Source of the DNA: an uncultured Alphaproteobacteria bacterium
GTDB taxonomy: Bacteria > Pseudomonadota > Alphaproteobacteria > Rs-D84
Assembly (NCBI GenBank): GCA_905234185.1
Contig: CAJOGC010000002.1
Span: 103,949 to 167,948, forward strand
DNA length: 64,000 nucleotides
Direction of reading: 5' to 3'
This document shows positions 3,672-33,697 of this stretch, piece by piece; the stretch's first letter is position 1, and every line of letters begins with the position of its first letter. The notes below the pieces were generated by a model that was not told where the DNA came from, made no database searches, and saw only the letters and a list, made by a program, of their open reading frames with translations. Made by a program: the position numbers and the translations under genes.

Positions 3672-3923
3672 ATCGGAAAAAGAGGTTGAAAATGAACACA
3701 TCTTGAACCATATATGTGTACAACAATACGTGCGTGCTTTTCATGCGCGCATTTTATTTATCGCAAAACAGCATGTTTTTGCGATTCGTACATCAAAAGA
3801 AAAATTATTAAAACGAATCGAAAAACCGATTCGCACTTCAATCAAAAGTTGTAGTGTTTAATATTATTCTTATTAAGCCCTATAACACAATTGTAACCAT
3901 TTTATAAAACAATGGAGAAATAA

Positions 3924-4268
3924 ATGACACAAACACAAACTGCATACACACCCGAAAAATTCCAGAACGCCGAACAACTATGGTTTTGGTTTCTATATTC
4001 TAAATCTGTTCAGAATGACTATACACGCCGGCGCGAAACCGCCACACGCCGAGTATGTGAATTACTTGATGTAGAAGCACTGATAACAAAACTATATCTG
4101 TGCGGCAAAATAACCGATGAACAATTGGTCGTTATGAAAAAGTTTGGCGATCGCCGGCGTGCCCCACATCAATATATCTGGGCTGAAAATCGTGCCGCCG
4201 CTTTATGGCGATGCGCAATGGAAACAATCGAATCAGCCGCACGCGATCGCGGTTGGATTAATAAATAA
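3924..4268 (+). CDS. hypothetical protein, 114 aa, basic and Trp-rich
   Basis: The ORF has an upstream GGAGA RBS (aatGGAGAaataaATG). I recognise no domain. Confidence 0.5.
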   Translation: MTQTQTAYTPEKFQNAEQLWFWFLYSKSVQNDYTRRRETATRRVCELLDVEALITKLYLCGKITDEQLVVMKKFGDRRRAPHQYIWAENRAAALWRCAMETIESAARDRGWINK

Positions 4269-4653: not shown

Positions 4654-6217
4654 ACTTTTCCATTTTATGTTTAATTATGTACATCTGGGCAATACCAAAC
4701 AGATTTGATACCGTCCAATAAAGTACTAACCCCGCCGGCATCCATGCAAACATAATTGTAAATATAATCGGCATCCAACGCATAGCACGTTGGGTCTGGG
4801 CGGCGACATCGTTTTTATCAGTGGATTTTGTTGCACCAGATTGCAAACGTTGTTGCAACCACATACTTGCCCCCATCAGTATTGGCAATATAAAATATGG
4901 GTCCATTACTGCCAAGTCGGAAATCCAAAGGAAGTGCGCATTACGCATCTGGACCGAAATCAATAATGCTTTATACAACGCAAAGAAAATCGGAATCTGA
5001 ATCAGCATCGGCAAACACCCAGACATAGGCGAAGTTTTATGCGTCTGGTACAGTTTCATTATTTCAATCTGCATACGTTGTTTATCATTCGCATAAAGTT
5101 TCTGTATGCGTTGCATTTCCGGCTGCATTTTCTGCATCGCCGCCATTGATGTGTATGATTTGCGCGTTAATGGCCACAGTGCAAGGCGCAACAAGATTGT
5201 CATTATAATGATCGCAACGCCATAATTCATAACAATCGAATTGATTGTATTTATCAGCCATAACATAGGCATTGCCAAGAACCAGAACCATCCATAATCA
5301 ACTGTTTTATCAATCCCTGGAATCTGGCTCGATGCAACTTTCAACACAGAACTGTCACGGGGACCGGCATACAGCAATGTCTTTATGTTTGCCTTTTCGC
5401 CCGCCACCACATTCACCGCGCGCGCATTAACATCAGATTGATACAAATCACCATATTTCTGGGCACGAATCGTTTGATCGGGCGCATCCACATCAACAAC
5501 CGTTTCCCAGTATTGGTCAACAAACCCCATAAAACCGTTTACCGTTGTATATGCACGCGGTTTCTTGGCCAACACGCGCCAGTCATCATGTTCAACATCA
5601 CCGTTGGCATATACAACCAAGCCGGTATAAACACCCGCGGACGACATTGTATTATTTTCACGTTGAATCCGTGCATATGGAGTAAATGAAAAGTCTTTTT
5701 TTGTATTATTTTTAATCTCGTCATCAATGGTTATAACATAATTATCAATCGCAACGGTTCTGTTGAAAATTACACCGTCCGCATTGCGCCAAGTATATTT
5801 ATCGCCATCGGCTTTCCATACCGTATCGGCGGTTGGCGCAGTTGTTCCAACACCAACGACACCTATTTCGGCATATGCATTTTCACCAGACAATAATTTG
5901 ACCGTTTCATTGCTATTGGAATTGGCCTTGAAATCACGCAAATCAATGTCCGATATACGCAATCCTTGGACATTGGCAGTCATTTTATCAGATGATATTT
6001 CATACGATGGAACATTTGATACATCAACGACCGCAACGGGTGCATCATCAACTGTGACCGTTTTAGTTTGCTTGCCAAACATCACACCAATTGCCCACCA
6101 AGCGGCCATAAACACAATGAACCACCACAAAAAACCACCAATACCACCACGTTTTTTAGTTTGATTCGCGTTCCACGCGGCAAACCCTGAATTATTATTG
6201 TCCAGATATTTAACCAT
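4652..6217 (-). CDS. yidC: membrane protein insertase YidC
   Basis: It has an N-terminal TM helix, a large periplasmic domain, and the conserved C-terminal core (MQKMQPEMQRIQKLY...SPMSGCLPMLIQIPIFFALY...DPYFILPILMG). Confidence 0.9.
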   Translation of the reverse strand: MVKYLDNNNSGFAAWNANQTKKRGGIGGFLWWFIVFMAAWWAIGVMFGKQTKTVTVDDAPVAVVDVSNVPSYEISSDKMTANVQGLRISDIDLRDFKANSNSNETVKLLSGENAYAEIGVVGVGTTAPTADTVWKADGDKYTWRNADGVIFNRTVAIDNYVITIDDEIKNNTKKDFSFTPYARIQRENNTMSSAGVYTGLVVYANGDVEHDDWRVLAKKPRAYTTVNGFMGFVDQYWETVVDVDAPDQTIRAQKYGDLYQSDVNARAVNVVAGEKANIKTLLYAGPRDSSVLKVASSQIPGIDKTVDYGWFWFLAMPMLWLINTINSIVMNYGVAIIIMTILLRLALWPLTRKSYTSMAAMQKMQPEMQRIQKLYANDKQRMQIEIMKLYQTHKTSPMSGCLPMLIQIPIFFALYKALLISVQMRNAHFLWISDLAVMDPYFILPILMGASMWLQQRLQSGATKSTDKNDVAAQTQRAMRWMPIIFTIMFAWMPAGLVLYWTVSNLFGIAQMYIIKHKMEK

Positions 6218-6843: not shown

Positions 6844-8562
6844 TTATTCAGATAATTTTACGGAATCATCCAAACATGCATAATCATTTTCACGTAATTC
6901 ATTTAACACACTGTGTATTTTTGTATCGGGCATTCCCATATGACGCAACGCCCGACAACCCAATACAGCGGCTGTTTCAATCGTTTCTGGTAATGCATTA
7001 CATGCACCGTACTTACGCAAAGTCTTGCAATCAGCCAGATTACGCGCACGTGCAAATATTTTGACACGCGGCGCAATAGATTTGACAGTCAACAATGCAT
7101 CTTTGGCGGTTTCCGCATTATCCAGCGCGACAATCACCGCCGCTGTTTTACGCGGATGCAAACCAAAATTGCGCAACACATCGGCATTTTTACAATTACC
7201 GAATACAACATTATAACCCTTTTCACGGCCACGCACGATTGCGTTTACATCCATATCAATCGCAACATATGGGACACAGTTTTGTTCCATTAATTTAGAA
7301 ACAATCTGACCGACACGTCCAAATCCCAATACAATAACTTTTGGTGCGATTTCCAAACCAGATCTGTCCAGACTACGTGGACGATATGCGGCAAAAATCC
7401 ACCCACGGCGGCGCAGGAAATCGTACATCGCCAACAACATTGGCGTTGTCATAATAGACAGTATTATGGTTGCCGTTAAAACTTCGGAACTGGTTGCCGG
7501 GATTGCGTTTATTCCCGCAGTTTTCATCGTCTGCAACATCAACAACCCAAATTCGCCCCCCTGGGACAGCATCAACGCCATAAACACCGCGTCCGGCACC
7601 AACATGCCACGCACGCGCGACACCATGAACAGCGCCATGAATTTTATAAATACCAAACCGCCCAAACCAACCAAGATATATTTCCATTTCATTAACAACA
7701 ACGGCACATTTAAGCCCATGCCAAGCGCGATAAAGAAAAATGCCAGGAATAACATCGAATACGGACTTATTTCCGCACTGATTTGATGGCGATAAATTGT
7801 TTCCGACATTAACATACCGGCCAAGAACGCGCCCAGGCCAACCGGCAACCCCATCATATCTAAAACCGTCGCCCAAATAACGATATTCAGCATAACGGTT
7901 AACAATAATGCTTCGCGACTTTTCAATTTCACAACACGTTTTAACAGCGGATTCAATATAAACCGACCAACAATTACAACCGATATAATCAACAGCAACG
8001 ATAACACCGCAACATCGATTGCCGTCGCACCAAAATTAAATGATTTGCCTGCAAACACCGGCAACATGGCTAAAATAGGAATCGACAATAAATCTTGGAA
8101 CAATAAAATAGAAAACGATTGATTTCCGACATTAGTATTTAATTCGTTTCTGTCTGACAATAATTGTAAATCTTCGGATGTACTGGACATCGCCAAAATC
8201 AGCGCAACCATAATACACCCCAACACCGACCAACGCGTAATACCAAACAATATCGGAAATAACATTACCGCAACGGTCAATACCTGGGACGCACCAAGCC
8301 CAAATATCGTTTTGCGCATAGACCACAGGCGGCTCATATTAATTTCCAAACCAATATTGAACCACAAAAACAAAATGCCCATATCACCCAGTAATTGCCA
8401 GGTTTGATTCATTTCAAAAAGGTTTAATCCAAACGGCCCCGACAAAATACCCGCTGCTAAAAACGCAACCAATGCCCCAATACGTGCGGCGCGCAGGAAG
8501 CATACCAACACAAACAAAATCCCAAAAAATATTAAAAACGATAATGGCATATCTCTCTCCAA
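6844..8562 (-). CDS. CPA2-family K+/H+ antiporter (Kef-type) with C-terminal TrkA-N/RCK domain
   Basis: The N-terminal part is polytopic. It is followed by a Rossmann motif (VIVLGFGRVGQIV) typical of KefB/KefC-like proteins. Confidence 0.85.
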   Translation of the reverse strand: MERDMPLSFLIFFGILFVLVCFLRAARIGALVAFLAAGILSGPFGLNLFEMNQTWQLLGDMGILFLWFNIGLEINMSRLWSMRKTIFGLGASQVLTVAVMLFPILFGITRWSVLGCIMVALILAMSSTSEDLQLLSDRNELNTNVGNQSFSILLFQDLLSIPILAMLPVFAGKSFNFGATAIDVAVLSLLLIISVVIVGRFILNPLLKRVVKLKSREALLLTVMLNIVIWATVLDMMGLPVGLGAFLAGMLMSETIYRHQISAEISPYSMLFLAFFFIALGMGLNVPLLLMKWKYILVGLGGLVFIKFMALFMVSRVRGMLVPDAVFMALMLSQGGEFGLLMLQTMKTAGINAIPATSSEVLTATIILSIMTTPMLLAMYDFLRRRGWIFAAYRPRSLDRSGLEIAPKVIVLGFGRVGQIVSKLMEQNCVPYVAIDMDVNAIVRGREKGYNVVFGNCKNADVLRNFGLHPRKTAAVIVALDNAETAKDALLTVKSIAPRVKIFARARNLADCKTLRKYGACNALPETIETAAVLGCRALRHMGMPDTKIHSVLNELRENDYACLDDSVKLSE

Positions 8563-14438: not shown

Positions 14439-15824
14439 TTAATCCAGTGTTCTTAAACTTATTTTTTCATCATCGACAATCACCAGTTTACCGGTGTGAA
14501 TACCGAATCGGCGGGCGGAATTAAACCCGTCGCGCATACCAAATAACTGTGTATCAAACAACGATGAAACGCCACGCAATAAACATAATTGATTTGCAAC
14601 CATACTGTCATTACATACCGCGATGATTGGAATATCGGGCTTGCGACAAGAAATCTGAATCGTCGCATCTGTATCACGCGCAAAAACAACAATCGCCGAC
14701 GCATGATTTAAAAACGCCATTGACGACACCGAACGTGACCAATCGTTTTGCGGCACGTTATCAACACGCGACCAATCATATGGATTCGCAATTGTGTCGG
14801 AATCCGAAAAAGTCAAAATGCGCGCCATTGTTTCGACTGTATTAACCGGATTTACACCAACGGTTGTTTCTTCACTGGTCATTGCCGAATCGGCGCGCAG
14901 ATATGCCGTGTTCGCAACATCCGATATTTCCGCACGGGTTGGAAAATCACTTTCCACCATCGATGCCAGCATTTGCGTCGCGATTATTACCGGTTTATTC
15001 ATCATGCGACAAACACGAATTATTTTGCGAGTGATTGCCGGCACTTGCTCATACGGAACCTCTACCGCTAAATCGCCACGCGCAATCATAATACCGTCGG
15101 ACACCGACACAATTTCATCAATGCGTTCCACCGCATTTGGACGTTCAATCTTCGCAATAATTTTTATCGGGTATGCAGTGCGTCGCGCAATGAAGTCACG
15201 CACAAACGCAATGTCGGACGCCCGTTGCACAAACGATATTGCAACATAGTCCGGCCGTTTTGTGATTGCGTATTCTAAATCTTCCCGGTCCTTTGCGGTT
15301 AAAACAGATGTTGTAATTTCCGTATCCGGCAAATTAAATCCGCGTCGCGACCATATTTCCGTTCCACGAACGACGGTTGCAACGACTTTGTGTTTAGAAA
15401 CCGATTCCACACGCATTTCAATCTTGCCATCATTCAACAAAATGCGGTCATCAACATTAAGTGATTTTAGAACATCGTTGTCCGGCAAATAAACACGTTT
15501 TGAATTGCCCGGTGTTGGGTCATCATCAAATGTGAAACGCCCACCAACCTTTAATGGATAATGTTCATCAGTTTCAAAATCACCAATGCGATGTTTTGGT
15601 CCCTGAATATCAACGATTACACCAACTGGTTTTTGTAATTCAGTCGCAACATCACGAATTAAATCAATCTTGTGTCCCTGGACACGTCCGGTATCATGGC
15701 TAAAATTAATACGAAAAACATCGGCACCCGCCACAACCATATCGCGTATGGTTTTGCGTGTGTCGCTGTTTGGTCCAATAGACGCGACTATTTTAGTAAA
15801 ATTATACACTCCCTCAGACGACAT
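14439..15824 (-). CDS. pyk: pyruvate kinase
   Basis: Motifs TKIVASIGP, VFRINFSHD, IIAKIE, MIARGDL and ATQMLASM are present. The true start is ATG 15824 (MSSEGVYNF). The longer track ORF runs through the divergent DUF2312 gene. Confidence 0.9.
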   Translation of the reverse strand: MSSEGVYNFTKIVASIGPNSDTRKTIRDMVVAGADVFRINFSHDTGRVQGHKIDLIRDVATELQKPVGVIVDIQGPKHRIGDFETDEHYPLKVGGRFTFDDDPTPGNSKRVYLPDNDVLKSLNVDDRILLNDGKIEMRVESVSKHKVVATVVRGTEIWSRRGFNLPDTEITTSVLTAKDREDLEYAITKRPDYVAISFVQRASDIAFVRDFIARRTAYPIKIIAKIERPNAVERIDEIVSVSDGIMIARGDLAVEVPYEQVPAITRKIIRVCRMMNKPVIIATQMLASMVESDFPTRAEISDVANTAYLRADSAMTSEETTVGVNPVNTVETMARILTFSDSDTIANPYDWSRVDNVPQNDWSRSVSSMAFLNHASAIVVFARDTDATIQISCRKPDIPIIAVCNDSMVANQLCLLRGVSSLFDTQLFGMRDGFNSARRFGIHTGKLVIVDDEKISLRTLD

Positions 15825-15897
15825 TGATTTTTCTTTGTCTTGATTTTTCGATTTTATGATATAACATATTGCCATAACATAACAAGGGGAAAAATAC

Positions 15898-16146
15898 ATG
15901 AAAAACGCAAACCATGGTGCAATTGATAACGCACAGTTAATCAGCATTATCGAACGAATCGAAAAATTAAACGAAGAAACCGCCGCAATCGCCGCCGATA
16001 TCAAGGAAGTGTACAGCGAGGCCAAGTCCGCCGGTTTCGATCCAAAATATATTCGCCAAATGATACGTTTGCGTAAAATGGATCCAGACGAACTGGACGA
16101 AGCGGACGAATTAACACAAATGTATCGTTCTGCATTGGGGTTATAA
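15898..16146 (+). CDS. DUF2312/GapR-family nucleoid-associated protein
   Basis: QLISIIERIEKLNEE...IKEVYSEAKSAGFDPKYIRQMIRLRKMD is the characteristic DUF2312 sequence. Confidence 0.85.
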   Translation: MKNANHGAIDNAQLISIIERIEKLNEETAAIAADIKEVYSEAKSAGFDPKYIRQMIRLRKMDPDELDEADELTQMYRSALGL

Positions 16147-16460
16147 TGAAACGTTTTACAAAACGTGTTGAAGATTTTACATGCGCACATTGTGGCGCAA
16201 ATGTTTCGGGCAATGGATACACAAACCATTGCCCGAAATGCTTATATTCACGTCATGTTGATAATACACCGGGCGACCGCGCGTCGAATTGCGGTGGAAT
16301 GATGGCACCAATAAGTATTGAAAAGTCGGGAAACGATTTTATCATTACGCACCGCTGTGAAAAATGTGGCAAAACAATTCGCCAACACACCGCCGAAAAT
16401 GACGACATGGACACAATAATTTCCATTTCCACCAACGATTCGTTTGTGTTTGGAAAATAA
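16146..16460 (+). CDS. RNHCP domain-containing zinc-ribbon protein
   Basis: FTCAHCG...GYTNHCPKCLYSRHVD...NCGGMM...HRCEKCG is present. The start overlaps the stop of the DUF2312 gene by 1 nt. Confidence 0.8.
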   Translation: MKRFTKRVEDFTCAHCGANVSGNGYTNHCPKCLYSRHVDNTPGDRASNCGGMMAPISIEKSGNDFIITHRCEKCGKTIRQHTAENDDMDTIISISTNDSFVFGK

Positions 16461-16472
16461 GCACAATTTTCT

Positions 16473-16506
16473 AAAAAAAAACACCGGCAAACGCCGGTGT
16501 TTTTTT
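16473..16506. terminator. bidirectional terminator
   Basis: A9-CACCGGCaaaCGCCGGTG-T7. Confidence 0.7.
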
Positions 16507-16897
16507 ATTCCCAATAGTCATCATAATAATCCGTTTTGGTTGTTTTTTTCTTCATAACAGGGGTTGTTTTTTGTTTCGTTTTCTTCTTTTTTTCCGTATA
16601 TGCAAATTTCCATTGTTTATAACTTAATGGTGTTTTTCCTTGTTTATCACAATTTACTAAATATTTTCTGTATTTTTCTCGTTGATTTTTACGCTTTTTG
16701 TTTTCTTGTTTTCCATATTCTATACCAATAGATAGCATTGTTATTGCGAATATTACCGCAATATAACCAATAGATAATATTATCCAAAACAAAGAACGAA
16801 TGACAACATCATCTAAACTGGCAAAAGCAGGAAAAGAGCAAGTTAAAAATAAAGACACAAAAAAGATGATTTTTTTCATTTTCTTTTCCTCTTTCAT
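16505..16897 (-). CDS. small membrane protein with Lys-rich tail
   Basis: It has a signal-like N-terminus (MKKIIFFVSLFLTCSFPAFA), one further TM helix, and a strongly basic tail (KKRKNQREKYRK...KKKKTKQK...KKK). It overlaps the upstream gene by 4 nt. Confidence 0.55.
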   Translation of the reverse strand: MKEEKKMKKIIFFVSLFLTCSFPAFASLDDVVIRSLFWIILSIGYIAVIFAITMLSIGIEYGKQENKKRKNQREKYRKYLVNCDKQGKTPLSYKQWKFAYTEKKKKTKQKTTPVMKKKTTKTDYYDDYWE

Positions 16898-17169
16898 TCA
16901 TCTAATAGATCATTTAAAATCTCTATCGCCATTTTTCCGAATCTGGCGCCATTGAAAGAAACTTTATTACTTAATACATTTGCTTGCAGTTGATGTCTTA
17001 GAGCTCTGATACTGTCCTTGCTTGGGATAGTATTAAAATAATTGTTTATTATATAATTAAAGAATTCTTGACTTTGGGCATGTGTTATTTGGTTTGCCAC
17101 AAACCGTACGTTTGATTTACCGCCCATAGAAAAATAAATCCCTTTTACGATATCATCTAGTATGAACAT
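16894..17169 (-). CDS. hypothetical protein, 91 aa
   Basis: The start is moved to ATG 17169 (MFILDDIV), which has an AAGGGG RBS. The track start TTG 17214 lies inside the upstream terminator hairpin. Confidence 0.5.
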   Translation of the reverse strand: MFILDDIVKGIYFSMGGKSNVRFVANQITHAQSQEFFNYIINNYFNTIPSKDSIRALRHQLQANVLSNKVSFNGARFGKMAIEILNDLLDE

Positions 17170-17195
17170 TATCAGCCCCTTGGTGTATATTTTAT

Positions 17196-17403
17196 AAAAA
17201 ACAAAACCGCCCAAGAAAGAGCGGTCGGGGAGTTAGAAAATCAGTTAAGTATGACTCCGCGGTCTTTAGATATACACACGCGGCTCCCCAACCATAGGTC
17301 AGGGATGATTACGGTGCAAAAACACCGAAACATCATTTTAACGATGCTTTCGCACCGACTTAACAGGACTTTCTACAGCCCGAACCCAATCTCTTGGATT
17401 CAT
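17196..17403 (-). ncRNA. candidate structured leader/attenuator RNA, copy A (unclassified)
   Basis: It starts downstream of a TTGCAA-16-TATAAT promoter and ends in a hairpin plus U-run just 5' of the RBS of the 16894 gene. It shares ordered conserved blocks and covarying helices with copy B at 26766..26982. Confidence 0.55.
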
Positions 17404-17408
17404 TTCTT

Positions 17409-17436
17409 ATTATACCTTATTTATGCCTAATTGCAA
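17409..17436 (-). promoter_or_regulatory. sigma70-like promoter of leader RNA A
   Basis: On the minus strand: TTGCAA (17436..17431), a 16-nt spacer, then TATAAT (17414..17409). Confidence 0.6.
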
Positions 17437-17449
17437 ACAGATTGATTTA

Positions 17450-17483
17450 TCATTGCGAGGGAGCATAGCGACCGCGGCAATCC
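17450..17483. repeat. short palindromic repeat (CATTGCGA...CAATCC type)
   Basis: tCATTGCGAGGGAGCATAGCGACCGCGGCAATCC. A related unit lies at 24971..25002. Confidence 0.6.
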
Positions 17484-17489
17484 ATAAAA

Positions 17490-17616
17490 ACTACCCCGCC
17501 ACTTCGTGACACCCCTTCGCTCGCGAAGGGGATTTTACTTTCTGGAATCATAGCATAAATCCCCTTCACTGTGTGAAGGGGTGGATTGCGAACGTTAGTG
17601 AGAAAGACGGGGTAGT
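17490..17616 (+). repeat. PAL-A palindromic element, copy 1 (~127 bp)
   Basis: The terminal inverted repeats are CTACCCCG...CGGGGTAG. The internal hairpins are CCCCTTC..GAAGGGG x2 and a central CTGGAATCAT. Related copies lie at 25701..25835 and 27027..27100. Confidence 0.8.
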
Positions 17617-17618
17617 CC

Positions 17619-17686
17619 CCTGCCCCCTTGTGGGGCGGGATAGATTTATTTACGAACAAAGTGAGTTAATAAATCTTGGGTGGGGG
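17619..17686 (+). repeat. PAL-B element arm (CCTGCCCCC...CTTGGGTGGGGG)
   Basis: It has the same conserved ends as 39430..39501. It forms an inverted pair with 17707..17786 across a 20-nt spacer. Confidence 0.8.
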
Positions 17687-17706
17687 AATTATAGGCGTTC
17701 TGTTTG

Positions 17707-17786
17707 CCCCCACCCAAGAGTCGCTAGTTCACATACGTTCACAAGCCGACTCTGTCCCGCCCCGCACGCTTTGCGCGGGGGCAGGT
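17707..17786 (-). repeat. PAL-B element arm, inverted orientation
   Basis: CCCCCACCCAAGAGTCGC...GACTCTGTCCCGCCCC...GCGCGGGGGCAGG. Its reverse complement aligns along nearly its whole length with 39430..39501. It abuts the pyrG stop codon. Confidence 0.8.
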
Positions 17787-17789
17787 CAA

Positions 17790-25883: not shown

Positions 25884-26747
25884 TTATTCATCCACACCGT
25901 AAATAAAATCGCCTGTGCCGGAATTACCATAAAACTTCTGTCCAACAACATCCCACATGCCATTTGCCGGAACCGTATAATTACCAATCACCATACCGGC
26001 GGGGACCGGAATAAAGTGTCCCAACAAAGTATCACCATTATATATCACAACATCATACCAATTCATCGTTCGTGACCAATATTCATCCCACCACGAACCA
26101 AAAACAATTGTATCTTCACCAGTTGCGACATAATTAATATCAAATGTTTGTTTAGTTCGTTCTTTGAATTGTGCACATGTTAAATCAGGAAAAACACGTA
26201 ATAATCTTGGGGCCCTATTATTCAACGACACTATACCACTGCTATAAGTTATGTAATTTGTCCCCAAAACGTTAGGGAAGGCACTACTACTGGCAAAAAA
26301 CATTGCGCGGTCTTCATAGCCTCTTGGTGGCGTTTCTATGTGTCTGTATCCAACTGTAAAAACGACCCTGCTGGAATCCAACCAATTTACACCTGTATCT
26401 ATATTATTTAAATACCCGTTTGTTACATCGTTTTGTATTTTCAAATACACATCGTCGTCCGCACCAACCAGACAATCACCAACAAACCAATGATGCCCCA
26501 CGTGTGTCTTGGTGCCAATGCATGCACTGTATACAGCATTATCATACATAACATGCAATGTATTTGTCAGATTTTTTCGAACCATTGGTATATGATAAAC
26601 ACTGCCGTTATCGGTCATTATATTAAAAGATGGCATTCCGAACTTTTCAGCATGTGCCGGTATGGACGCATTACCAATGCGCAATGCATAGCCCCAACAA
26701 ATTGTTGGTGCCAATATCAATAAAAATATTACTAATATTTTTCTCAA
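25884..26747 (-). CDS. secreted hypothetical protein (~287 aa)
   Basis: A signal peptide is present (RKILVIFLLILAPTICWGYA). The start is uncertain: TTG 26747 is preferred because TTG 26768 lies in the U-run of the upstream terminator. The C-terminus ...GQKFYGNSGTGDFIYGVDE recalls beta-sandwich tail-fibre or lectin-like proteins, but only weakly. Confidence 0.6.
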   Translation of the reverse strand: MRKILVIFLLILAPTICWGYALRIGNASIPAHAEKFGMPSFNIMTDNGSVYHIPMVRKNLTNTLHVMYDNAVYSACIGTKTHVGHHWFVGDCLVGADDDVYLKIQNDVTNGYLNNIDTGVNWLDSSRVVFTVGYRHIETPPRGYEDRAMFFASSSAFPNVLGTNYITYSSGIVSLNNRAPRLLRVFPDLTCAQFKERTKQTFDINYVATGEDTIVFGSWWDEYWSRTMNWYDVVIYNGDTLLGHFIPVPAGMVIGNYTVPANGMWDVVGQKFYGNSGTGDFIYGVDE

Positions 26748-26765
26748 CCCCGAATTCCCCAACCG

Positions 26766-26982
26766 CAAAAAATAACCGTCAATCTGTGGACTGACGGTCG
26801 GGGTGTTCGAAAATCATATACAACAATGACCCTGTGATTTTTACACCACAGCACCCCGACCTTTTATATCGGGGTTTGGTAACGACACAAATGCGTATGA
26901 TTTCTTAAGCGATTACGGACGCACTTGCACCGGTTGTATATGGGCTTTCGACGGCCCCGAACCTGTGCCACCACAGATTCAT
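26766..26982 (-). ncRNA. candidate structured leader/attenuator RNA, copy B (unclassified)
   Basis: It lies downstream of a TTGCAT-18-TATAAT promoter. It ends in CCGTCA-gtccacagat-TGACGG + TTATTTTTT immediately 5' of the 25884 gene. Its blocks are conserved and its helices covary with copy A. Confidence 0.55.
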
Positions 26983-26987
26983 TTCTT

Positions 26988-27017
26988 ATTATAAAACATT
27001 TGGTATATTTTATGCAA
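26988..27017 (-). promoter_or_regulatory. sigma70-like promoter of leader RNA B
   Basis: On the minus strand: TTGCAT (27017..27012), an 18-nt spacer, then TATAAT (26993..26988). The 18 nt from the -10 box onward (TATAATAAGAAATGAATC) are identical to copy A. Confidence 0.6.
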
Positions 27018-27026
27018 TATTAAAAA

Positions 27027-27100
27027 CACTACCCCGTCACTTCGTGACACCCCTTCGCACGGCAAAGGGGATTTTTAGTATCTGGAATATGATTCCATAG
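27027..27100 (+). repeat. PAL-A element, truncated copy 3 (left half)
   Basis: CACTACCCCGTCACTTCGTGACACCCCTTCGCACGGCAAAGGGGATTTTTAGTATCTGGAAT... matches the left half of copies 1 and 2. Confidence 0.7.
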
Positions 27101-33400: not shown

Positions 33401-33474
33401 TGGGGTGTCGTCTAATGGTAGGACAAGAGATTTTGGTTCTCTTTATCATGGTTCGAATCCGTGCGCCCCAACCA
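33401..33474 (+). tRNA. tRNA-Gln (anticodon TTG)
   Basis: Manual cloverleaf: acceptor TGGGGTG/CGCCCCA, D arm GTCT-AATGGTA-GGAC, anticodon arm AGAGA-TTTTGGT-TCTCT, T arm CATGG-TTCGAAT-CCGTG, and an encoded ACCA. Confidence 0.9.
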
Positions 33475-33697
33475 AAAATTCAACCGGCATTTTTGCCGGT
33501 TTAATTTTTGATCGCGCACGGATCGGTCAGAGTGCCAACGGCACGCATGACCAATACGAGAATACACAATTAGAAAAATCTTAAAAAATCGACGGATGGA
33601 GATTTTTTTGATTTTGATTATTGCGTATCGAGGCAGCGGCGCCCCAACCAAAAATTAAAACCGCCCATCTGGGCGGTTTATTTTATTGTGTCGACAA

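Follow-up and report, generated by a model that had tools for sequence, protein, structure and literature searches.

A previously undescribed family of structured leader RNAs with a probable conformational switch in gut Alphaproteobacteria

The question raised by positions 17,196 to 17,436 of a 64,000-nucleotide (nt) stretch from an uncultured alphaproteobacterium of the Rs-D84 lineage (GenBank assembly GCA_905234185.1, contig CAJOGC010000002.1, positions 103,949 to 167,948; the whole stretch is called the window below) is what the structured RNA lying between a promoter and a terminator, just ahead of a two-gene cassette, does for the genes behind it. The original prediction, made from the letters of the window, described this unit as a candidate novel attenuator or riboswitch-like leader and pointed to a second copy in front of an unrelated secreted protein. 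The two copies are now placed at 17413..17191 (copy A) and 26992..26760 (copy B), both on the minus strand (-), and are two members of one RNA family; this family of structured leaders is strongly supported, had not been described before and carries an explicit switch between conformations. Very likely it is an on/off switch of an undescribed kind, of which about 100 copies from many species preserve two exclusive folds, and no description of such an RNA was found in the literature on sRNA-Xcc1, Enterousia, Rs-D84 and gut or alphaproteobacterial riboswitches.

The layout proposed for copy A, a structured unit running from a promoter to a terminator before a two-gene cassette, is confirmed. The promoter (17409..17436, -) consists of a -35 box TTGCAA at 17436..17431, a 16-nt spacer and a -10 box TATAAT at 17414..17409, with 10/12 matches, and the transcription start site probably lies at ~17402-17401. 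A leader of ~190 nt separates the promoter from the intrinsic terminator (17196..17226, -), a stem-loop GACCGCUC-UUUCUU-GGGCGGUU at 17226..17205 followed by UUGUUUUUU, the UUUGUUUUUU tract reaching 17196; the ATG of the first gene is at 17169. The two copies are 62% identical to each other, and the ordered blocks that they had been said to share are exact, with only two occurrences in the window against at most 0.2 expected by chance. Both fold into the same shape and far more stably than dinucleotide shuffles (z = -8.2 for copy A and -7.1 for copy B), and the matches of a covariance model of the family in the window are exactly these two, scoring 184 bits (A) and 157 bits (B). A weak third match of this model at 33574..33692 was examined and rejected, being a duplicated transfer RNA (tRNA) 3' end plus a terminator.

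The further homologs for which the original prediction had called were found in number. An exact-pattern scan with the 3' block GATTTTCNAACNCCCCGACC, restricted to one genome per species, returned 101 loci, of which ~85 are clear homologs; the covariance model, built from 69 homologs, gave 99 matches in the fetched loci, including extra copies without the exact 20-mer lying a few kb from another copy. Among 100 metagenome loci picked by a 5' core 16-mer there were 5 further model matches, the other 16-mer matches being mostly due to chance. The hosts of the homologs are metagenome-assembled genomes (MAGs) of rumen and gut Alphaproteobacteria, namely Candidatus Enterousia/Rs-D84 and relatives, some records being labelled 'uncultured Azospirillum', 'Rickettsiales' or 'Rhodospirillales'; the MAGs RGIG3039 and RGIG6362 hold at least six copies each. 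It has been reported that Candidatus Enterousia belongs to the GTDB order Rs-D84, with member genomes of ~0.7-1 Mb, and that these bacteria and their relatives are uncultured animal-gut symbionts in which the standard sugar, amino-acid and peptide transporters are missing (PMC12306168).

Throughout the family the order is the same: a sigma-70 promoter, ~190 nt of structured RNA, an intrinsic terminator and, ~25-40 nt later, a Shine-Dalgarno sequence (SD) and start codon, the whole leader measuring ~205-210 nt. A U-tract follows the last stem in 92 of 94 members, and a same-strand open reading frame (ORF) stands behind 93/99 copies, its start a median 15 nt past the model end and so some tens of nt beyond the U-tract. 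A -10-like hexamer (mean 4.9/6 matches) starts, in 55/94 members, at -13/-12 relative to the base that opens the 5' terminal hairpin P0, and this fixed distance both supports the promoter prediction family-wide and places the transcription start at or next to the first P0 base. As a separate observation, leader-gene units often come two per locus, 1-6 kb apart, in small arrays of promoter, leader, terminator and gene, such as L016 1239-1499 with 7483-7758, L043 3934-4192 with 5353-5610 and L050 201-459 with 3846-4107; in such arrays a terminator is frequently found just upstream of each promoter.

Two sets of helices can be drawn for this RNA, here called fold A and fold B, and three hairpins are common to both. 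P0 (copy A 17382..17401, -; GAAUCCAA-GAGA-UUGGGUUC) shows compensatory changes at all 9 pairs, with 96% of cells paired; P2 (17312..17357, -), a long variable hairpin with the closing pairs CGGUGC/GCACCG, shows them at all 6 closing base pairs; and P4 (17257..17283, -; CCGCG...CGCGG) at all 7 pairs. Fold B adds the long-range helix P1, made of P1a and P1b, its 4-bp extension G1:C2 (GGGG:CCCC), the hairpin P3 and the full terminator T. In copy A the 5' strand of P1 (17358..17375, -) is formed by P1a UAGAAAG at 17375..17369 and P1b at 17365..17358; its 3' strand belongs to the region 17234..17256 (-), which contains AGUCA at 17256..17252, the P1b 3' strand at 17250..17243 and UGAUUUUCUA at 17243..17234. 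P3 (17284..17304, -) pairs the strand C1, CCCUGAC at 17304..17298, with the strand G2, GGUUGGGGAG at 17293..17284, which in the family form reads CCCUGAC:GUCGGGG. C2 (17223..17232, -) is CUCCCCGACC, whose final bases ACC double as the foot of the terminator stem, and G1 is GGG at 17381..17379.

P1 combines a conserved and a hypervariable part. P1a has the family consensus UCGAAAG:UUUUCGA (7 bp, conserved), and its variable position is C:G in 66, A:U in 20, G:C in 7 and U:A in 1 member, none being unpaired, in a model-fitted alignment (A4); in a structure-blind MAFFT alignment (A2) the covariation at this position arises partly by construction, through a selection filter, and A4, which has no such filter, agrees. 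The hypervariable 8-bp P1b has a mean longest helix of 8.09 bp, compared with 4.32 bp with mismatched partners (maximum 4.65; 0/200 permutations as high). Nearly all members have a P1b of almost exactly 8 bp (range 6-11), and essentially no two copies agree in its sequence, the copies inside one genome being diverged and each having its own P1b; the paired segments on either side are nearly invariant, and P1b looks like a per-copy barcode. It may set the threshold at which each gene is switched, or it may simply drift as long as pairing is kept. For fold B as a whole, 94.4% of cells are paired in A4 (76.4% when shuffled) and 50/56 pairs are compensatory, with a covariation score of 0.485 against 0.172 shuffled and at most 0.074 when slid; the corresponding values in A2 are 91.6% against 78.7%, 37/56 pairs, and 0.397 against 0.170 and at most 0.083.

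In fold A, the helices H5, HK and II take the place of P1, G1:C2 and P3. H5 is a local 5' hairpin with the family form GGGCU/AGCCY, 92-100% paired with a few compensatory changes; in copy A it reads GGGCU-GUAGAA-AGUCC, and together with G1 it covers 17366..17381 (-). HK is a local 3' hairpin, AAUCA/UGAUU (AGUCA/UGAUU in copy A), whose loop is the P1b 3' strand. Helix II is GGUCGGGGNG/CN'CCCCGACC, also written GGUYGGGGNG/CN'CCCCGACC, and is 98% paired; its N:N' pair is A:U in 31, U:A in 28, G:U in 22 and G:C in 5 members. Taken together, H5, HK and helix II are 95.9% paired with 11/20 pairs compensatory, and whole fold A on the structure-blind alignment scores 0.338 for covariation against 0.168 shuffled. 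Unconstrained RNAalifold returns the elements of fold A, and single-sequence minimum-free-energy folding returns fold B. Among the helices listed by the original prediction, P0, H5 (GGGC..GYCC), helix II, P4 and the alternative CCCUGAC:GGUCGGGG pairing (P3) hold family-wide; what it had missed was the main long-range P1 (17375..17358 with 17250..17234) and P2 (17357..17312).

These conserved pairings might in principle be inverted repeats of the DNA, and a mobile or DNA-level element, such as a promoter cassette resembling a miniature inverted-repeat transposable element (MITE) or a Correia element, an inverton or an attC-like recombination site, would account for several copies before accessory-type genes (surface proteins, glycosyltransferases, restriction-modification methylases), for the conserved 10-bp inverted repeat GGTCGGGGNG/CNCCCCGACC and for the block that the window copies also share upstream of the promoter. 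However, the wobbles are strand-asymmetric: the helices together contain 662 G:U against 78 A:C, so selection acts on the sense-strand RNA and not on duplex DNA. The orientation to promoter, terminator and gene is fixed in 93/99 members, and the copies have diverged with compensatory changes, the 62% identity of the window pair being far from the near-identity of MITE or Correia-like copies. An inverton is further contradicted by the complementary orientation of P1b in 69/69 members tested and by the identity of the locus in two independent assemblies: the stretch 17160..17789 (pyrG plus the intergenic stretch with copy A) is identical in ENA ERZ28573687 scaffold_50 (183 kb) and in an independent Logan assembly. 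Searches of phage and plasmid collections (blastn) and of viral contigs (pattern scan) gave no matches to the RNA, and a DNA-level element is, on balance, a very improbable explanation.

The two folds compete for the same strands. The partner of G2 is C1 in fold B but C2 in fold A, where the two make helix II; in fold B, C2 is bound to G1 instead. Similarly, A92/G93 of P1a belong to H5 in fold A, which makes H5 exclusive with both G1:C2 and P1a, and UGAUU is either in HK or in P1. The near-invariant strands change together where they change at all: C1 CUCCAAC, G2 GUUGGAG and C2 CUCCAAC occur in 4 members, and one further member has C1 UCCUGAC, G2 GUCGGGA, C2 UCCCGAC and G1 GGGA. At the other end, the upper T stem covaries freely and the bottom three pairs of the terminator are invariant (A:U 95, C:G 95, C:G 96), and it is the ACC of these three pairs, often with the preceding G, that helix II also takes. 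The 1:2 / 2:3 / 3:4 competition originally read from copy A (C1:G2, G2:C2, C2-ACC:terminator) is therefore borne out by the joint changes of C1, G2 and C2 and agrees with the invariant ACC/GGU base. It can be seen that two general features of riboswitches are present, a structured 5'-leader domain supported by covariation and mutually exclusive terminator and antiterminator pairings, the latter with a small overlap (2-3 nt).

The element is thus best read, with good though not full confidence, as a 5' leader that acts in cis as a conditional transcription terminator/antiterminator switch of riboswitch-like type. RNA synthesis would start at ~17401, and two exclusive folds would be open to the transcript. 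In fold B, P1 with its 8-bp P1b, extended by G1:C2, would close a four-way junction whose other arms are P2, P3 (C1:G2) and P4; neither strand of helix II would then be free, the full terminator (ACCG...CGGU and the U-tract) could form, and transcription would stop before the gene. In fold A, the 5' and 3' halves would fold locally as H5 and HK, and the freed C2 would displace its weaker look-alike C1 from G2; C1 is usually wobbled (CCCUGAC) and C2 perfect (CCCCGAC), which should let helix II prevail as soon as C2 is released. Helix II would then capture the invariant ACC at the foot of the terminator, next to the U-tract, and RNA polymerase would read into the gene. Three tiers could accordingly be named: P3 and the P1-locked G1:C2 as anti-antiterminator, helix II as antiterminator and T as terminator. 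We infer the control of termination by the overlap with the terminator, the polarity of the switch and the nature of its effector.

Several findings weigh against this reading and against a ligand as the effector. Variants aside, the covariation of fold A comes mostly from the one pair N:N', the other positions being nearly invariant. The overlap of helix II with the terminator is A553/C554 (and C555), 2-3 nt only, and the two might partly coexist. Fold B is strongly favoured energetically: with the helices of each fold enforced, 88 of 95 members have a lower energy in fold B than in fold A, and the median gap is 10.5 kcal/mol in the full leader with terminator, 7.3 kcal/mol without the terminator and 3.9 kcal/mol before C2 is transcribed. 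The terminated fold is therefore the predicted ground state, and fold A needs either kinetic access, through its local helices, or stabilisation by something. Moreover, P1 at ~19 bp is longer than the ligand-dependent P1 of typical riboswitches, and the controlled genes are functionally heterogeneous and mostly without an assigned function, with no obvious ligand suggested by the regulon.

A second explanation keeps the same architecture and replaces the direct sensor by a trans-acting effector: an RNA-binding antiterminator protein, or a small RNA (sRNA), would turn the default-OFF terminator ON by stabilising the 3' three-way junction (helix II-P4-HK) or by keeping P1 open. The length of P1 suits a default-OFF leader with an active antitermination factor no less than it suits an OFF switch stabilised by a ligand. 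The predicted ground state, fold B with terminator in 88/95 members and still fold B without it, suits such a factor, as does the conservation of P1a, HK and helix II in sequence and not in pairing alone, which sequence-specific recognition predicts; the 3' domain also resembles the fold of a free-standing, experimentally detected sRNA, RF02221 (PMC2996969). However, this conservation is also explained by the two partners that each strand has to serve; known protein-dependent targets (RAT, ANTAR, PyrR and TRAP sites) are much smaller than a ~190-nt multi-junction RNA; no candidate protein was identified; and the genomes are under 1 Mb (PMC12306168). A trans-acting factor is accordingly considered rather unlikely, while remaining the most serious of the competing explanations.

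As to the effector within the cis-acting switch, a direct RNA sensor is the first choice, since the four-way junction is large and conserved and the surface regulon is heterogeneous and multi-copy; a factor-dependent ON switch fits almost as well, since P1 is long, the ground state is stable and the helices are conserved in sequence. The proposal of an OFF switch in which the four-way junction closed by P1 binds a small molecule or ion is made with somewhat less than even confidence. More tentative still is the wider proposal of a new riboswitch class or protein-free switch that would read one physiological or partner-derived signal and co-ordinate the variable surface repertoire of Rs-D84/RF32 symbionts, perhaps with a translational layer in which the G-rich SD is a third competitor for the C-tracts.

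A third explanation takes the terminated transcript of ~205 nt itself as the product, a functional stand-alone and possibly trans-acting sRNA, with the gene expressed by incidental read-through. It would be in keeping with the unit's own promoter and strong terminator, with the high stability of the terminator-formed fold and with the sub-threshold likeness to sRNA-Xcc1, an 88-nt sRNA seen on Northern blots (PMC2996969). The gene behind the leader argues otherwise: 93/99 copies have an SD and start codon in the same orientation within a few tens of nt, no minus-strand promoter was detected between the terminator and the ATG of copy A, and there are many diverged copies per genome with a different gene behind each. 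The exclusive pairings at the base of the terminator, likewise, would have no obvious role in a plain sRNA. An autonomous sRNA is consequently held to be improbable, and the conditional terminator remains the preferred reading.

The attenuator logic of the original prediction stands as far as the exclusive segments are concerned, with P1 and G1:C2 as an additional layer; the RNA is not an attenuator of the leader-peptide type. The statement that the leader had no plausible ORF needs qualifying, since copy A contains a 21-codon ORF from an ATG at 17403; this ORF is not conserved. A start-like triplet occurs at the position of this ATG in only 40/95 members, the resulting ORFs range from 2 to 81 codons and none has an SD, so leader-peptide attenuation was rejected and, as had been supposed, the region is not translated in any conserved way. 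The complementarity once noted between the transcription start region and the terminator loop is a chance match, the mean longest run being 3.29 against 3.21 with mismatched partners.

A separate observation concerns the ribosome-binding sites behind the leaders, where unusually G-rich SDs are found (22 nt upstream of start codons; window 17179..17176; loci L001-L101). Of the leader-controlled genes 49% have GGGG and 31% GGGGG; among the remaining genes of these loci the figures are 16% and 3%. These G-runs are complementary to the leader C-tracts, and leaders with altered C-tracts have a matching SD, CUCC with GGAG twice and UCCC with GGGA once. A role of the SD as a third competitor for C1/C2, i.e. 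a translational layer, is possible. In equilibrium ensembles, pairing of the SD with C1 or C2 was tried and found to be rare (probability 0.015 and 0.086 per nucleotide), since fold B already engages both C-tracts.

The genes controlled by the leaders form a secreted and surface repertoire together with surface-glycan and restriction-modification genes. Grouping of the 93 downstream proteins gives 38 clusters, of which the largest has 23 members, and a simple hydrophobicity rule assigns a signal-peptide or transmembrane-like N-terminus to 71 of them. When 69 were scanned against Pfam, NCBIfam and PHROGs, six GT2, two GT8 and one GT9 protein, one Stealth protein, one sulfatase-type protein and two DNA methylases could be named, and Listeria-Bacteroides repeats were found in three; the proteins named are thus only a minority, glycosyltransferases and methylases among them, and PDB sequence searches of the downstream proteins were uninformative. 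The two-gene unit behind copy A (16505..17179, -) starts with the SD GGGG at 17179..17176 and comprises a 91-amino-acid (aa) gene at 17169..16894 and an overlapping 130-aa gene at 16897..16505, whose product is a membrane protein with a Lys-rich tail; Pfam offers no family for either of these two called genes. The gene behind copy B (25884..26768, -) encodes a secreted protein of ~287-294 aa that belongs to the largest cluster (23/93) and has no match in Pfam, NCBIfam, PHROG or PDB.

Two MAGs carry at least six copies each of this ~200-nt RNA, almost always before secreted or surface-modifying genes, and if the proposed switch is true, at least six copies per sub-1-Mb genome would co-ordinate secreted proteins, glycosyltransferases and restriction-modification methylases. 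The copy number and gene setting point to a central signal for the presentation of the cell to its host or partner. With 99 examples, both folds defined and the switching strands named by concerted changes, this is a testable orphan switch.

Copy B, whose existence had been predicted, spans 26760..26993 (-) when its -10 box TATAAT (26993..26988) is included; its -35 box, TTGCAT with an 18-nt spacer, is weaker than that of copy A. Its helices, all on the minus strand, are P0 at 26980..26959, the P1 5' strand at 26951..26933, P2 at 26932..26883, C1 at 26874..26868, G2 at 26860..26852, P4 at 26851..26832, the P1 3' strand at 26824..26807, C2 at 26805..26796 and the terminator at 26799..26774. Upstream of both promoters there is a shared block of ~70 nt, at 17480..17550 (also given as 17550..17480) and 27025..27100 (-), with the sequence UUCCAGA..AAAAUCCCCUUYGC...GCGAAGGGGUGUCACGAAGUGRCGGGGUAGU; it holds a CCCCUUCG/CGAAGGGG hairpin, which scans as a plus-strand terminator, and a CAC-GAA-GUG mini-hairpin, and copy A has an additional similar hairpin at 17581..17561. 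This block is absent from all 101 related loci and is therefore genome-specific; it may serve as an insulating terminator or belong to a duplicated unit.

Elsewhere in the window, the 3' end (GCGCCCCAACCAAAAATT) of the tRNA at 33401..33471 (+) is repeated ~180 nt downstream at ~33640, and each of the two 3'-end copies, within the span 33401..33692, is followed by a terminator-like hairpin, which caused the spurious weak covariance-model match. The duplication has the appearance of a scar left where an element entered or left the tRNA gene. Meanwhile, the longest ORF of the pyruvate kinase (14439..16229, -, 596 aa) includes an N-terminal extension, rich in Cys and Ser, that is implausible; gene calling on the source contig yields a pyruvate kinase of 461 aa, which indicates that the true start is internal.

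How the family relates to known RNAs can be judged from Rfam and from the architecture itself. The original prediction could not match the conserved blocks to a known RNA, and at the gathering thresholds of Rfam 15 the window indeed holds only two tRNAs, with no match to a riboswitch, T-box, leader, ribozyme or sRNA family. Like T-box leaders, the RNA is ~200 nt long, is present in many copies per genome and controls a terminator; unlike them, it has no Rfam T-box match, and the downstream genes are not aminoacyl-tRNA or amino-acid genes. The trp, his and thr leader-peptide attenuators share with it the consecutive exclusive segments 1:2, 2:3 and 3:4 ending in a terminator, but here there is no conserved leader ORF with regulatory codons, and the RNA is much larger and more structured. 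LicT/SacY RAT, ANTAR and PyrR leaders resemble it in having an antiterminator that overlaps the 5' foot of the terminator and a default-terminated ground state, whereas their targets are single or double small hairpins, none of which was detected here by Rfam. Transcription-terminating riboswitches also place a multi-helix RNA between a promoter and an intrinsic terminator, with a P1-closed junction and an antiterminator set against the terminator; the differences are the lack of an Rfam riboswitch match, the three-tier competition of G1/C1/G2/C2 and the overlap of 2-3 nt. In the many copies per genome before heterogeneous genes for surface and secreted proteins, the family also resembles the regulons of multi-copy second-messenger classes such as c-di-GMP-I (GEMM).

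In permissive E-value scans of both copies and of 13 other loci, the sole consistent Rfam match was sRNA-Xcc1 (RF02221), and it covered the 3' third of the element only. The scores were 28.8 and 26.9 bits for the window copies and 34.7 bits for the best of the 13 other loci, well below the gathering score of 53 bits; the layout of an outer helix plus two hairpins is present, and the integron/symE setting is absent. sRNA-Xcc1 has been reported as an 88-nt RNA detected on Northern blots in Xanthomonas (PMC2996969) and lies upstream of symE in integron cassettes (bioRxiv 10.1101/2025.06.18.660453). Both RNAs have a G/C-rich outer helix of 9-10 bp (GGNCGGGGNG/CNCCCCGNCC) around two hairpins, followed by a UUNGA-like single strand, which in the 3' domain studied here corresponds to helix II-P4-HK and a UUCNAA strand; when positions 1-87 of the RF02221 model are aligned to 7 members, helix II, P4 and HK fall in corresponding places. 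In addition, both are found upstream of a gene in an accessory context. On the other hand, the RNA described here is ~120 nt longer at its 5' end (P0, P1, P2, P3) and has a separate terminator and an alternative fold, and it occurs in gut Alphaproteobacteria, in contrast to the integron cassettes of beta- and gammaproteobacteria. The likeness is a resemblance and not membership, possibly reflecting a distant relationship, and it suggests that sRNA-Xcc1 may itself be a leader-type element.

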